Assembly: GCA_043778225.1 (NCBI GenBank)
Contig: JAYWGM010000004.1
Coordinates: forward strand, 1-55,421
Reading direction: 5' to 3'
DNA from: Deinococcales bacterium
Lineage (GTDB): Bacteria > Deinococcota > Deinococci > Deinococcales > JAAFIG01
Length of the DNA: 55,421 nucleotides
Shown: positions 98-55,421 of the stretch, in pieces
How positions within the stretch are numbered: the first letter of the stretch is position 1
Layout: each line of letters opens with the position of its first letter
Made by a program: the position numbers and the translations under genes
The notes under the pieces: model-generated
What the model was told of the DNA's origin: nothing
The model's input: the letters and a program-made list of their open reading frames with translations, nothing else
Database searches by the model: none

Positions 98-162
98 AAT
101 AAACTCCTTTAACTTTCTTGCAAAGTAACGCGCCCACTCGAGGCGGGCGAAGATTAAAAATC

Positions 163-237
163 TGGAGCTCGCGGTCGGGATTGAACCGACGACCTCCCCC
201 TTACCAAGGGGGTGCTCTACCAGTGAGCTACGCGAGC
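163..237 (-). tRNA. tRNA-Thr(GGT)
   Basis: Reverse complement GCTCGCG...CCCCC-TTGGTAA-GGGGG...GGTTCAATCC...CGCGAGC-T-CCA folds as a cloverleaf with anticodon GGT and encoded CCA. Typical position upstream of tuf. Confidence 0.97.
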
Positions 238-284
238 CTAAAAACATCTCTTGCAAAAAAACGCACCCTCTCGAGTGCCGCGTG

Positions 285-313
285 AATATAGCACCATCAC
301 GCCGACTTGTCAA
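285..313 (-). promoter_or_regulatory. Sigma70-type promoter for tRNA-Thr/tuf
   Basis: Minus strand TTGACA-17 nt-TATATT with an extended -10 TG. Confidence 0.8.
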
Positions 314-396
314 AGGCGCGAGCGCCAATCTGCCAAAAAGCGTATTTCTCGAGATCAATATCATTTTTCATGCTTTGGGTTTAGGCTATTCTAGAG

Positions 397-858
397 ATGC
401 GTCGTTTGTTTGGGATTGGAGTTTTACTGCTCTGTTTTGGCTTTTCTGGGCTGGCAAACGCCCAACAATTTGCCTTTGGAGGCAGTATTTCTGGCACTGG
501 CACGTTTGGTTCTGGAATTTTCAATACGGGCTTACCTGGCACATTTGGTTTGGCTGTTCGGGTTGAATGGCTCAATGCCTTTGCGCCAAATTTCTCGGTT
601 AGAGCCGATTTTTCGACTCGAGGCTTGGAGACTGGCATCGGTTGGCGTTTGGACTTGAGTTCACAAGTCAATCTGACCCTCAACCTTGGCTTTGCACTGC
701 TCGAGTGGCAAGAAACAGGGCTGTATGGCAGATTTGGTCTCGAGTACCGTTTTTCGACGTTTGCGCTGGCACTTGAGTATGGTTGGCGCAGTCCTTTTGT
801 GGGAAAACTCGGCTCGAGTTTGATTCTTAGTTTTCTTTACTTTCTTCGGGTATCCTAG
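397..858 (+). CDS. Exported hypothetical protein, possible small outer-membrane beta-barrel
   Basis: Signal peptide ending ANA-Q, then alternating amphipathic strands rich in G/F/Y/W. Confidence 0.6.
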   Translation: MRRLFGIGVLLLCFGFSGLANAQQFAFGGSISGTGTFGSGIFNTGLPGTFGLAVRVEWLNAFAPNFSVRADFSTRGLETGIGWRLDLSSQVNLTLNLGFALLEWQETGLYGRFGLEYRFSTFALALEYGWRSPFVGKLGSSLILSFLYFLRVS

Positions 859-864
859 AAGCCT

Positions 865-1680
865 GTGGCAAAGAAACCAAAACGCTCCGAACCGTTGGCG
901 CAACGCCCAGCATGGCTGATTGGGGTCGCTTGGGGCGCATTTATTGGTGTTTGGCTTGGGGTGCTGGCTGCCTTAATTAACAACGACCTCGAGTGGTTTT
1001 GGGCGCTTGGAATTGCCCTGACCTGTGCCTTCTTGGGGGCTTTTCGGGTCTCGAGACTCGGCTTACATATTTTCTCGGGGCTGCTGACTTTTGGGATTGC
1101 CTTGGTGGCTTTTACGCCAGTCTTGCAGCCGCTCGAGGATTATCTGGATGTGACCGAATTACCAACCCAAGCCGATGTGATTGTCAATCTTGGGGCTGGG
1201 TTTTTTTGTGGGACAAGCCAACTCGAGGCAGCCAGTTTAGCGCGAATCACCAAAGGATTAGAACTCTGGCGTTCTGGCTATGCCAAGACCATCACAATTA
1301 CCGACGCACATGGACTTGCGCCCAACTGTGGCAGTATTGAAGATGCCGCACTGGGGCTAATTCAAAAACTCTACCCCATAAATCCCCCAGAAATCGTGGT
1401 CTTAAAAGACATGAAAACCACCCGCACCGAAGCCGAAGCGGTGGCAAAAGAAGCCAAAATTCGTGGTTGGAAGAAGATTCTGGTGGTCACCAGTCCAAGC
1501 CACTCGAGACGCACCAAAACCACTTTTGCCCAATTGGGTTTGGATACCTTGGTGGTGGCAGCCAGCGAACCACGTTTTGACTCAAGTTTACGGACTCCAT
1601 TTGACCGACTGATGGCGATGCGGGTTGTGGCTCGAGAACTGGCTGGCTTTGCCAAATACAGTTTATTGGGCTGGTTTTAG
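865..1680 (+). CDS. YdcF/ElyC/SanA (DUF218) family membrane protein
   Basis: N-terminal TM helices; motifs ADVIVNLGAG, TTRTEA, ILVVTSPSHSRR and RELAG. Confidence 0.85.
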   Translation: MAKKPKRSEPLAQRPAWLIGVAWGAFIGVWLGVLAALINNDLEWFWALGIALTCAFLGAFRVSRLGLHIFSGLLTFGIALVAFTPVLQPLEDYLDVTELPTQADVIVNLGAGFFCGTSQLEAASLARITKGLELWRSGYAKTITITDAHGLAPNCGSIEDAALGLIQKLYPINPPEIVVLKDMKTTRTEAEAVAKEAKIRGWKKILVVTSPSHSRRTKTTFAQLGLDTLVVAASEPRFDSSLRTPFDRLMAMRVVARELAGFAKYSLLGWF

Positions 1681-1725
1681 CCCTTCCTCATCTATTCTCG
1701 AGCCATGGGTATTAGGCTAATCATC

Positions 1726-53435: not shown

Positions 53436-53478
53436 TACAGTATTCTAAAAGCCATTCATATTTTCTTTTGGAGGTCTT

Positions 53479-54858
53479 ATGGCGTTACTGATTAAAAACG
53501 GCGAAATTGTCACAGCGGACTCGAGGTACTTCGCGGATATTTTTATTGAATCCGAAACGATTACGCGCATTGGCACAAAGCTCGAGGCAGATATAGGTAC
53601 AGAGGTAATAGATGCGACGGGCAAACTGATTTTCCCAGGTTTTATAGACCCACACGTCCATATTTACTTGCCATTCATGGCGACTTTTGCTAAAGACACG
53701 CACACCACGGGTAGCCAAGCCGCACTGGTGGGTGGCACAACCACCTTTATTGAAATGTGCTGCCCGAGCCGTAACGATGATGCACTCGAGGGCTATAAGC
53801 TCTGGAAGTCAAAAGCGGCTGGCTCGAGCGCTTGCGATTATACCTTTCATATGTCGGTCACAAAGTTTGACGAGCAAACCGAAGGTCAGCTTCGAGAAAT
53901 CGTGGCAGATGGCATCTCGAGTTTTAAGATTTTTTTATCGTACAAGAATTTCTTTGGTGTAGACGACAATGAAATGTACCAGACCATGATGCTGGCAAAA
54001 GAACTTGGCGTGATTGTAACTGCCCACTGCGAAAATGCCGAATTGGTTGGGCAACTACAACAGCACCTGCTGGCGCAGGGTAAAACAGGTGCCCAATGGC
54101 ACGAACCTAGCCGCCCAGAAAGTGTTGAGACCGAAGGCACAATGCGCTTTGCGACCTTCCTCGAGAATACGGGAGCAACTGGCTATGTGGTGCATCTGAG
54201 TTGTGCTGGCGCATTGGCACAAGCCGTGGCTGCCAAACAAAGGGGCGTACCAATTTACATTGAAAGCGTGATTCCGCATTTTTTACTCGATAAAACCTAT
54301 GCCGAGCGTGGCGGGGTCGAAGGTGCAAAGCACGTCATGTCACCGCCATTGCGCGACAAGCGCAACCAGAAAGTCTTGTGGGATGCCTTGGCACAGGGCT
54401 TAATAGATACTGTCGGCACAGACCACTGCCCGTTTGATGTTGCTCAAAAAGCCCAAGGCAGCGACAACTTTACTGCCATTCCCAACGGCATTCCAGCCAT
54501 CGAAGACCGCGTAAATTTGCTTTACACTTACGGCGTTTCTCGAGGCACACTGGACATTCACCGTTTTGTCGAAGCTGCCAGCACCAAAAGCGCTAAGTTG
54601 TTTGGATTATTTCCACAAAAAGGCTGTATTGCGGTGGGTTCAGATGCCGACCTGGTGATTTACGACCCGACTTACCGTGGCACAATTTCAGCCGCCACAC
54701 AAACCGTCAACAACGATTACAACGGTTTTGAGGGCATGGAAATAGATGGCAAACCCAGTGTCGTGACGGTGCGCGGAAAAGTCCAAGTACGGGACGGAAA
54801 ATTTGTTGGTGACTCGAGCCTAGGTAAGTTCTTGCAGCGTAAGCCACAGCATTTTTAG
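53479..54858 (+). CDS. hydA: Dihydropyrimidinase (D-hydantoinase)
   Basis: PGFIDPHVH, GGTTT, SSFK, AHCEN, SPPLR, TDHCPF and GSDADLVI motifs. Confidence 0.93.
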   Translation: MALLIKNGEIVTADSRYFADIFIESETITRIGTKLEADIGTEVIDATGKLIFPGFIDPHVHIYLPFMATFAKDTHTTGSQAALVGGTTTFIEMCCPSRNDDALEGYKLWKSKAAGSSACDYTFHMSVTKFDEQTEGQLREIVADGISSFKIFLSYKNFFGVDDNEMYQTMMLAKELGVIVTAHCENAELVGQLQQHLLAQGKTGAQWHEPSRPESVETEGTMRFATFLENTGATGYVVHLSCAGALAQAVAAKQRGVPIYIESVIPHFLLDKTYAERGGVEGAKHVMSPPLRDKRNQKVLWDALAQGLIDTVGTDHCPFDVAQKAQGSDNFTAIPNGIPAIEDRVNLLYTYGVSRGTLDIHRFVEAASTKSAKLFGLFPQKGCIAVGSDADLVIYDPTYRGTISAATQTVNNDYNGFEGMEIDGKPSVVTVRGKVQVRDGKFVGDSSLGKFLQRKPQHF

Positions 54859-54953
54859 AAATTTTAGATTCTCGAGGTTCTAATCTACTATTCTCGAGAA
54901 TCTAGTCTCGATAAATTATCCTTTTCTGGACAATAAAAATAGCGATAAAGTCG

Positions 54954-54992
54954 AAATTTGCAACTTGAGTGGTACACTCAAGTTGCAAATTT
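54954..54992. promoter_or_regulatory. Perfect 18-bp inverted repeat (operator or terminator)
   Basis: AAATTTGCAACTTGAGTG-GTA-CACTCAAGTTGCAAATTT followed by further Ts. Confidence 0.6.
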
Positions 54993-55154
54993 TTTTACAT
55001 TTCGTAAAAAATCTTTAGCCCATTCTGAGCAATACTAAGGCGACTGAATTTTTTTGCTAAACCAGATTCGGCATTTCGGTTACTTGGGGTAATTTGTTCT
55101 TTTGGAATCTCTAGCACTTGGCTTTTATTTCTCGCAATCTTCTGAGGTCTTGAT

Positions 55155-55319
55155 ATGAACAGGAATAACAAAAATTTTGGACGTATAGTGGCATTAACCC
55201 TATCGGCTTTGATAGTTGGTGTCAGTTGTAGTCAGTTACAAGCTCAACCCGTTCAACTTGGCAACCTGACATCAACGATTGATGTACCAGCCGTGACCAG
55301 TGATAAGAAGCTCGGATAA
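55155..55319 (+). CDS. 54-aa secreted or lipoprotein peptide (below the ORF-track cutoff)
   Basis: GAGG RBS; MNRNNKNFGRIVALTLSALIVGVSCSQLQAQPVQLGNLTSTIDVPAVTSDKKLG*. Confidence 0.5.
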   Translation: MNRNNKNFGRIVALTLSALIVGVSCSQLQAQPVQLGNLTSTIDVPAVTSDKKLG

Positions 55320-55336
55320 TCTGTTAAAATAGTTTA

Positions 55337-55421
55337 ATGGGTAGAGCAAAAATAAAACTCGAGCTACAACACACCGCCGAAGAACTCCAACAGCACTACC
55401 AAAAGGCGAGTAGTGCAGTAG
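55337..55421 (+). CDS. 5' end of a probable IS630-family transposase or HTH protein (truncated by the window edge)
   Basis: MGRAKIKLELQHTAEELQQHYQKASSAV... resembles IS630 N-termini; TAAAAT-6nt-ATG. Confidence 0.45.
   Translation, partial: MGRAKIKLELQHTAEELQQHYQKASSAV

Follow-up and report, generated by a model that had tools for sequence, protein, structure and literature searches.

Highly iterated palindromes (HIPs) have gone unexplained since the 1990s, and most current proposals link them to cognate DNA methylases. In cyanobacteria, HIP1 (GCGATCGC) and the alternate HIPs are exact, GC-containing palindromes. They stand in great excess both in non-coding DNA and in every reading frame of coding DNA, and related genomes retain them more than codons or amino acids explain (PMC4390886; PMC5861425). 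HIP sites occur about once per kb and generally alongside a cognate methylase (Elhai, 2015), and a tens-of-kb periodicity has been reported for HIP1 (Xu et al., 2018; PMC5861425). Here we describe a window, the whole stretch of 55,421 bases that was analysed (contig C4 of G000, the genome of an uncultured relative of Deinococcus in the Deinococcales, which has 4.03 Mb in 107 contigs and 48.7% GC), in which the hexamer CTCGAG behaves as a HIP. It resembles the cyanobacterial words in being an exact, GC-containing palindrome, in its excess in all frames and outside genes, and in its retention between related genomes, and differs from them in being 6 bp rather than 8 bp long, in belonging to another phylum, in being about six times denser than the roughly one site per kb given for HIPs (Elhai, 2015), in having no cognate methylase common to its carriers, and in that variants one base away from it show no preference for the outer positions, as is the mark of a nested methylase site in HIPs. 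Judging by titles and the openings of abstracts, the papers surveyed that use the term concern cyanobacteria or employ it in passing, and we found no published report of hyper-abundant CTCGAG in the literature on highly iterated palindromes or on CTCGAG in 'Deinococc-'. What is new in this HIP is the word, the phylum, the density, the lack of a cognate methylase and the graded distribution: a second HIP-like system has arisen in an unrelated, non-photosynthetic phylum, denser than HIP1 and with no methylase common to its carriers.

Other described systems resemble it in part. The uptake signal sequences (USS) of Pasteurellaceae and the DNA uptake sequences (DUS) of Neisseriaceae are likewise short words that occur in all frames, are spread by drive, affect proteins and are poorly represented in imported DNA. 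They are, however, non-palindromic words of 9–12 nt with a flanking consensus, occur about once per kb and have an uptake receptor, known or presumed, that recognises them, whereas CTCGAG lacks an asymmetric core. In very-short-patch repair (Dcm/Vsr), a sequence-specific repair nuclease turns near-cognate into cognate words, much as in the ratchet proposed below; in Escherichia coli this bias favours CCWGG over CTWGG and its effect is small. G000 differs in that Vsr (PF03852) is absent, no C5 methylase is shared among its relatives, and TTCGAG and CTTGAG are not depleted. Finally, the restriction–modification enzymes XhoI and PaeR7I are dimeric and recognise the same 6-bp palindrome, but restriction systems lead to avoidance of their own site (as in genus g7, below) and not to a 70-fold excess. 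Among 41 genomes in which we counted CTCGAG directly, 19 of the window's family (five genera) and 22 outgroups from four other families, the XhoI nuclease family PF04555, the one nuclease family of that specificity searched, matches in 0/19 family genomes and in three outgroups (G021, G033 and G031).

Copies of CTCGAG are spread over the whole window, and the longest interval between them is short:

137..55363, unstranded: 377 copies of CTCGAG, 24–43 per 5 kb over the entire window, where dinucleotide shuffles expect 7.2
37706..38415, unstranded: longest interval without CTCGAG, 709 bp; no motif-free island occurs in the window

In 100 dinucleotide-preserving shuffles of the window the mean count was 7.22 (standard deviation 2.88, maximum 14) and 0/100 reached 377. 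The first-pass annotation of this DNA had called the motif highly iterated and HIP1-like and had counted 22 copies in positions 1–3000, which is indeed the number; of the span that it gave, 137..55364, the start is right and the end lies one base too far, the last site occupying 55358–55363. Over the whole of G000, which is rated 89% complete and 0.04% contaminated and whose largest contig measures 154 kb, CTCGAG occurs 24,877 times, or once per 162 bp, and is the commonest hexamer by far, the next palindrome, AAATTT, having 2,854 copies; all contigs of more than 2 kb carry one CTCGAG per 151–251 bp. How large this excess comes out varies with the null model. Genome-wide observed/expected ratios (O/E) are 26.7, 47.5, 15.1, 3.6 and 1.16 at Markov orders 0, 1, 2, 3 and 4, respectively, but orders 3 and 4 swallow the signal in a circular way because 89% of CTCGA continue with G, and a maximal-order Markov ranking does not flag CTCGAG because the word's own 5-mers hold the signal. 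When the motif is masked before training, a second-order model of the genome expects 357 copies against the 24,877 observed, a 70-fold excess.

An account that needs no special process, i.e. one of codon or dipeptide usage, composition, a repeat family or an assembly artefact, can draw on the maximal-order O/E of only 1.16, on the fact that frame 0 (Leu-Glu) is the commonest (12,582 of the 21,321 copies in genes) and on high-GC relatives in which codon bias alone gives O/E of 3–6. The maximal-order model is circular, as said, and the rest does not survive a codon-preserving shuffle, which the first-pass annotation had named as a test that could refute its observation. For this we used 3,195 crude genes (longest non-overlapping open reading frames (ORFs), minimum length 120 aa, together covering 86% of the genome) and permuted synonymous codons within each gene in five replicates, a conservative null that keeps both the protein and the motif-inflated codon usage. 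The phases CTC-GAG, nCT-CGA-Gnn and nnC-TCG-AGn hold 12,582, 4,297 and 4,442 copies, whereas the shuffles hold 1,550–1,653, 337–381 and 293–320, so that the enrichment persists at about 9-fold overall and at about 8-, 12- and 14-fold by phase. Density is the same within ORFs (1/162) and outside them (1/161), and the flanks of the copies are unique and carry no information. Neither is the excess an assembly artefact, because the 18 other family genomes, separately assembled and including one single contig of 5.09 Mb, show the same density. CTCGAG is thus an exact palindrome that exceeds composition, Markov and codon-preserving models, in all frames and in non-coding DNA. The excess is real, neither codon usage nor an artefact can account for it, and to the absence of any special process, in whatever form, we give next to no credence.

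A single parameter describes the strength of the effect. Where the spelling is silent, CTCGAG fills 12,555 of 18,165 Leu-Glu dipeptides (69%), 4,297 of 7,629 (Ser/Pro/Thr/Ala)-Arg-(Val/Ala/Asp/Glu/Gly) tripeptides (56%) and 4,442 of 10,595 x-Ser-Ser/Arg (42%). Motif-free codon usage predicts that 2.2% of Leu-Glu should be written as CTCGAG, which corresponds to an odds ratio of 99.6 (ln 4.6), and the excess is 55-fold (ln 4.0) in non-ORF DNA and 70-fold (ln 4.2) genome-wide. One bias in fixation, all-or-none and in the region of e^4–e^4.6, accounts for coding and non-coding DNA alike. These numbers point to a process at the level of DNA that keeps making and restoring CTCGAG in any frame, coding or not, and that prevails over the choice among synonymous codons and, in thousands of instances, over the residues encoded.

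The effect on proteins is considerable. Leu-Glu is the most over-represented dipeptide of G000 (18,205 against 7,819 expected, O/E 2.33), CTCGAG having added some 10,000 of them to the proteome, whereas the mirror dipeptide Glu-Leu stands at 0.97 and Met-Glu (0.52) and Val-Glu (0.71) are both depleted. Three genes of the window serve as illustration:

865..1680, plus strand: DUF218 gene (Pfam PF02698), six CTCGAG in all three codon phases
13260..17024, minus strand: purL (1254 aa), 33 CTCGAG sites
46598..48070, plus strand: G6PD gene, 10 Leu-Glu
47348..47353, plus strand: CTCGAG as Leu-Glu at G6PD residues 251–252 (coordinate derived from the gene start)

In the DUF218 gene the word is read as CTC-GAG at 988, 1132 and 1222, as nCT-CGA-Gnn at 1631 and as nnC-TCG-AGn at 1050 and 1503; the three frames that the first-pass annotation had picked out here (CTC-GAG at 1132, GTC-TCG-AGA with its site at 1050, GCT-CGA-GAA with its site at 1631) are all present. 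PurL contains 28 Leu-Glu, 25 of them written as CTCGAG, against a mean of 5.4 and a maximum of 9 in 62 outgroup orthologs, while its Glu-Leu number 6 against 7.6 in the outgroups; 19 of the 25 motif-encoded positions are Leu-Glu in fewer than 20% of these orthologs. G6PD has 10 Leu-Glu here, 12 in its two closest relatives and 5–6 in three more family members, compared with a mean of 2.8 and a maximum of 7 in 73 orthologs of other phyla, the closest relatives being metagenome-assembled genomes (MAGs) of uncultured Deinococcales. At residues 251–252, where 67 outgroup orthologs and three of the five family relatives have Met-Glu, the protein has Leu-Glu, encoded by CTCGAG, and this position is, on the sequence comparison, an example of a protein altered to fit the word.

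The unit itself is an all-or-none bare hexamer, without flanks and without a spacing rule. Information in the flanks amounts to at most 0.03 bit per position over ten positions on each side, and about 19–20% of sites extend as palindromes by at least one further pair, against 25% by chance, ORF and non-ORF sites behaving the same. The first-pass annotation had placed copies in intergenic hairpins; the five sites that it named do lie in or beside predicted stems but, as there is no palindrome extension genome-wide, their position is incidental. Spacing is exponential-like (mean 161, median 117, coefficient of variation (CV) 1.00), and the sole period up to 400 bp is 3, the codon period. Directly adjacent pairs (spacing 6) number 0 genome-wide; they would form GAGCTC, which is nearly missing from the genome (24 copies). 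Doublets at spacing 7, of the pattern CTCGAGNCTCGAG, number 123 genome-wide against 30–53 at spacings 8–11; they lie in unique contexts, in every phase and with any middle base. The window contains the following:

6654..6666, unstranded: doublet CTCGAGNCTCGAG (spacing 7)
8443–8455, 15735–15747 and 18632–18644: further doublets of the same kind

Words that differ from CTCGAG by one base are not depleted, the transitions being raised to O/E of 1.8, 2.34 and 1.96 and the transversions lying at 0.57–1.49, which looks like a mutational halo. The deamination products TTCGAG (1.8) and CTTGAG (1.96) are not depleted, and no position-specific excess of C-to-T change is seen among the neighbours at any cytosine position. 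By position, the one-off O/E is 1.61 for 1/6, 1.13 for 2/5 and 1.53 for 3/4, so that the outer positions are not favoured. Of all TCGA, 68% fall inside CTCGAG, and TCGA elsewhere is not enriched.

The sites are maintained but not static. We threaded 11 window genes by codon on up to seven congeners of 70–83% DNA identity, comparisons that are not independent, each window site being set against up to seven kin. CTCGAG was unchanged in 62, 59 and 65% of comparisons in the three phases (n=270, 94 and 107), compared with 25% of other hexamers (about 22,900 each), and where the residues are conserved it was kept in 74, 61 and 88% against about 35%. This is the conservation in orthologs that the first-pass annotation had proposed to look for, and it exceeds that of control words, although shared saturation alone gives much of it. 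At conserved Leu-Glu positions that the window writes as CTCGAG, the congener has CTCGAG in 167/225 cases (0.74); at those that the window writes otherwise, the congener nonetheless has CTCGAG in 29/70 (0.41), and sites are therefore gained and lost within the genus. Between congeners, 45 of 270 motif-encoded Leu-Glu are lost, compared with 43 of 113 other Leu-Glu. CTCGAG is in dynamic equilibrium and is not a relic. The genome also contains stretches of more than 2 kb free of CTCGAG, which number 11 against 0.11 expected:

C44:57430-63066, C41:55253-59552, C40:7694-11073 and eight more in G000: CTCGAG-free stretches, 31–46% GC

These islands of 2–5.6 kb with low GC are probably recently imported DNA. 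A metagenome scan with PurL for near-identical strains found nothing nearer than 69% amino-acid identity. The contig at that distance (L179, 780 kb; PurL 69% identical to that of the window) has 7.1 CTCGAG per kb and 25 Leu-Glu in PurL, and is a further carrier of the trait. Comparison of window positions 36001–55421 with assembled contigs of runs X3 and X4 gave short pieces, mostly of less than 90% identity and from mixed organisms; 0 of 40 listed differences (of 2,280) fall inside CTCGAG against 1.5 expected, a comparison with no statistical power. Runs X1 and X2 match the window without differences over long pieces and are possibly its source, so that they are not independent of it.

Within the window's family the trait is fixed. 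All 19 genomes have one CTCGAG per 147–233 bp (genome sizes rounded), at a nearly constant density while the GC content of the sampled DNA spans 46–63%; the 22 genomes of four other families range from 1/343 down to 1/37,500. Outgroups of Thermus and Deinococcus type with high GC show O/E of 3–6, mostly in frame, which is a codon effect, and G019, which we considered as an intermediate, is outgroup-like too (6,990 sites, O/E 3.4 at 58% GC). The Deinococcus-like genus g7 avoids CTCGAG: O/E is 0.4 in G020, and the six genomes sampled (G020, G024, G028, G032, G036 and G040) hold 128–942 sites each in 3.5–4.8 Mb of about 66% GC. They are without the XhoI nuclease family, and another family of CTCGAG-cutting enzyme is likely in this genus.

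The trait is not confined to the window's family. A scan of the phylum for the doublet CTCGAGNCTCGAG in 364 genomes of 60 genera (the unpublished G327 enters this tally only) gave 36–275 doublets in the 19 family genomes and 0–24 in the 345 others, but the doublet is an insensitive proxy that misses carriers: G325 has 0 doublets yet an O/E of 30, and G157 has 24 at one CTCGAG per 136 bp. The scan therefore does not map the trait, and DNA was sampled directly. G157 and G156 (coded family f3, genus g23) carry one CTCGAG per 136 and 114 bp, with O/E of 57–122, arbitrary contigs included, and spell 81–84% of Leu-Glu as CTCGAG. In three genera of family f2 (g34, g51 and g56; GC 42–52%) there is one CTCGAG per 400–816 bp with O/E of 12–31 in nine of the ten genomes sampled, the tenth, G324, being represented by only 7 kb with O/E 6; in these carriers CTCGAG is the top hexamer and 40–51% of Leu-Glu are spelled with it. 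On a crude measure, the median identity of 10–61 ORFs to G000, G156 and G157 (46–56%) are as near as the other genera of the family (49–56%), and the f2 carriers (39–42%) are as distant as Thermus-like outgroups. In 32 further genera, of which 1–5 kb each was sampled, there was no strong carrier and there were three weak hints resting on 4–6 sites each. G158, coded in the genus of G157, has one CTCGAG per 3,925 bp over 420 kb; it does not appear to be a ghost of a lost drive, its Leu-Glu O/E of 1.28, against 0.93 for Glu-Leu, falling within the outgroup range of 0.86–1.48, and since the two share only 59–63% identity in two usable orthologs, a switch within one genus is not shown. Across the order, then, the trait varies in strength and is scattered in occurrence, and the earlier suggestion that it might be shared with other Deinococcota holds for 19/19 genomes of the family and some genomes of two other families, but not for g7, which avoids the word, nor for Thermus-like genomes, in which the enrichment is only the 3–6-fold of codon level. 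Among viral contigs, at least 126 stretches hold three CTCGAG in 72 bases; the densest belong to phages of 62–72% GC that are also rich in the mirror word GAGCTC, which reflects codon usage and GC content, and no clear case of the family's CTCGAG signature was seen among the 80 stretches examined.

The first-pass annotation had expected that a methylase of XhoI/PaeR7I specificity would probably lie elsewhere in the genome, and this expectation was not borne out. In G000, methylases are plentiful: five full C5 enzymes, at least three of the beta class, three HsdM-like, several of type IIG/ISP, one of TaqI type and three of the D12 class. The family was searched in MAGs that are 57–94% complete, methylase classes being judged by family and orthology. 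Two genes drew attention:

G000:C65:15248-17197 (L001:685-2637), minus strand: orphan adenine methylase with a TaqI-like specificity domain, adjoining a PIN-domain gene
G000:C89:21218-24828 (L443): dprA, then a 277-aa gene overlapping the start of a D12-like methylase (380 aa)

The TaqI-type gene has a normal CTCGAG density and occurs in 3/19 family genomes (this one and two congeners, one with an in-frame stop) and 0/22 outgroups, and was rejected as the reader. The D12-like gene, two genes downstream of dprA and 86% identical in G007, forms with the 277-aa gene what is probably a restriction–modification pair inserted beside dprA; present in only 2/19 family genomes, it was rejected as well. 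In G013, the family genome that is a single contig, seven methylases were found within the five classes searched, none with an ortholog in G000 (best identity 25–36%). Beta-class enzymes are missing from G013, G014 and G002, and C5 enzymes from G010 (91% complete) and G002. D12 enzymes occur in 18/19 family genomes with 34 matches, but the 25 of these that were compared fall into 11 groups at 45% identity, the largest of which comprises seven genomes of three genera and does not include G000. Among the five classes searched, then, with enzymes compared by orthology and not by specificity and the gamma class not scanned family-wide, no methylase ortholog is common to the family, which suggests that the reader is not a shared ortholog of recognisable DNA methyltransferases, enzymes of families that we would not recognise being possible. 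Repair nucleases fared no better as candidates: DUF559, of Vsr-like fold, is found in 17/19 family genomes but also in 11/22 outgroups, including the genus that avoids CTCGAG, and MutH in 2/19 family genomes.

How might such a word be driven? The first-pass annotation had listed repair-driven creation, chromosome organisation and DNA uptake as candidate roles. The bias is the same whether or not the DNA is coding, sites turn over rapidly, and proteins suffer extensive side effects; together these features argue for a drive at the level of DNA and not for 25,000 sites each useful in itself. Dimeric proteins of the restriction–modification type typically recognise palindromes that are sharply delimited and have no flanking preference, and the bare hexamer points to recognition of that kind. 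Our working hypothesis, which we favour only tentatively, is that a sequence-specific bias in mismatch repair or gene conversion drives CTCGAG. A dimeric protein of this type would read the exact palindrome and, wherever replication errors or recombination among copies of the chromosome produce heteroduplexes, would steer repair towards the strand with CTCGAG; one-off words would thereby ratchet into CTCGAG and losses would be reverted, and the abundance would be largely a by-product of drive rather than a sum of some 25,000 useful sites. Deinococcus, Thermus and cyanobacteria are polyploid and transformable, which would be expected to amplify any conversion bias. That the trait is stable in the family while GC content and restriction-avoidance patterns vary counts in favour of this reading. 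The ratchet is of the kind that Elhai (2015) proposed for HIPs but is not his version, because the dinucleotide GC does not occur in CTCGAG, the density is about six times that of his predicted saturation, and no methylase is shared. We consider doubtful a more specific form, a 'word drive' in which the exact palindrome is read by some protein other than a methyltransferase, which in polyploid cells would bias repair or conversion towards it, lineages gaining, losing and tuning the factor. If this were true, a tunable factor would explain the full strength in the family and in G156/G157, the one-third strength in three genera and the absence in close relatives, and the same class of mechanism, not methylation, might underlie cyanobacterial HIP1. 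Several points weigh against a repair or conversion bias. Biased conversion and per-site selection leave identical comparative signatures, and our data cannot separate them. One-off neighbours stand above expectation (O/E up to 2.3), although a ratchet of high efficiency might use them up. Sites are retained only modestly more than shared saturation would give (0.74 against an occupancy of 0.69), so that retention says little for the inheritance of any given site. The scattered occurrence beyond the family may point to a mobile factor, and this is hard to square with the lack of a shared mobile methylase. No reader protein was found, so that the central actor is hypothetical, and as G000 is 89% complete and our ORFs of at least 120 aa are crude, a gene absent here could sit in the missing part.

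It is unlikely, but deserves to be taken seriously, that CTCGAG is instead a signal for DNA uptake or transformation, the competence machinery or a step after uptake preferring DNA with the word and recombination between conspecifics spreading it by molecular drive. As with USS and DUS, the word stands in all frames, alters proteins and has a halo of one-off variants, and the CTCGAG-free stretches are of low GC, as imported DNA would be, although a resident drive of whatever kind would leave such word-poor islands just as well. G000 has genes for ComEC and DprA, but so do nearly all control genomes, so that they do not discriminate, and naturally competent relatives such as Thermus and Deinococcus are without the trait. 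CTCGAG is, moreover, a bare palindromic hexamer, 6–7 times denser than known uptake sequences. For HIP1, a 2024 preprint reports raised transformation that depends on methylation, and a 2026 paper reports a link between the abundance of HIP1 and proteins of type IV secretion and suggests that the word serves in uptake. A role based on methylation, to which we attach slightly less probability, would have CTCGAG targeted by methyltransferases that are non-orthologous or unrecognised by Pfam, the methylated site serving strand discrimination, replication control or protection and methyl-directed repair making the sites. Alternate HIPs of cyanobacteria are accompanied by a cognate methylase, and a ratchet based on methyl-directed repair has been proposed for them (Elhai, 2015; PMC4390886); a 2026 preprint reports CTCGAG methylation in hot-spring communities, in a host–phage group. 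G000 does have many methylases, including the TaqI-type orphan with its normal CTCGAG density, and D12 enzymes are nearly universal in the family; yet the orphan is rare and once interrupted by a stop codon, the G013 set is unrelated to that of G000, the beta and C5 classes are each missing from some genomes, the D12 enzymes are split into many groups and the one beside dprA is in two genomes only. The neighbours show no position-specific C-to-T excess, and CTCGAG lacks the GC dinucleotide that the model of Elhai (2015) needs and is about six times denser than the saturation of about 1 per 1000 nt that this model predicts. A selected structural or recognition role, with CTCGAG as the site of a nucleoid or repair protein or as a Chi-like 'self' mark that tempers a nuclease in polyploid, desiccation-exposed Deinococcales, we think improbable. 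The similar density (1/147–1/233) across GC contents of 46–63% looks like a set point, and motif-encoded Leu-Glu are lost less often than others, as described above. On the other hand, the random spacing (CV 1.00), without a helical or longer period up to 400 bp, is unlike a structural lattice, some 25,000 sites each with a selective value of its own would be a heavy load, density varies 3–5-fold between carrier lineages, and no candidate protein was found.

Beyond the word itself, what is new here is the existence of carriers outside the family, the description by saturation and a single parameter, the turnover test, the comparison of the seven G013 methylases and of whole methylase classes, and the contrast of changing palindrome avoidance with constant CTCGAG. 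As regards the last, 32 of the 64 hexamer palindromes in G000 have O/E of less than 0.07, and GGGCCC, AGGCCT and GACGTC have one copy each in 4 Mb; GGCC has 131 copies (O/E 0.006), GATC an O/E of 0.18 and CCGG one of 0.31, and the window holds GGCC once and GAGCTC twice. The purged palindromes differ in G013, in which GGCC is not avoided, and in G019, and restriction pressure therefore turns over between genera while CTCGAG is constant in the family. Graded strengths with non-carriers nearby should make the factor findable by correlation with gene content, which is hard in cyanobacteria because nearly all are carriers. In practice, CTCGAG flags imported DNA and marks contigs of these lineages in binning, and XhoI is predicted to cut such DNA into pieces of about 160 bp unless it is modified.

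Other features of the window are as follows:

166..237, minus strand: tRNA gene without CTCGAG, with sites at 137 and 270 on its two sides
19894–22197, minus strand: fused purD–purM gene (GARS and AIRS domains, 767 aa) in a purine operon
32501–34579, plus strand: 692-aa WD40-repeat protein
40458–40535: intergenic hairpin-forming repeat of TTTAACC-like heptamers
51348–51387: second short repeat

The heptamer repeat, for which a fold of -52.6 kcal/mol is predicted over 40440–40600, has 99 blastn matches on 43 contigs in both orientations, occurs also in congeners and contains no CTCGAG; it looks like an element of the repetitive extragenic palindrome (REP) or miniature inverted-repeat transposable element (MITE) kind. 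The second repeat has 14 matches on 12 contigs, is found in congeners at 86–93% identity and is not a tRNA by Rfam.

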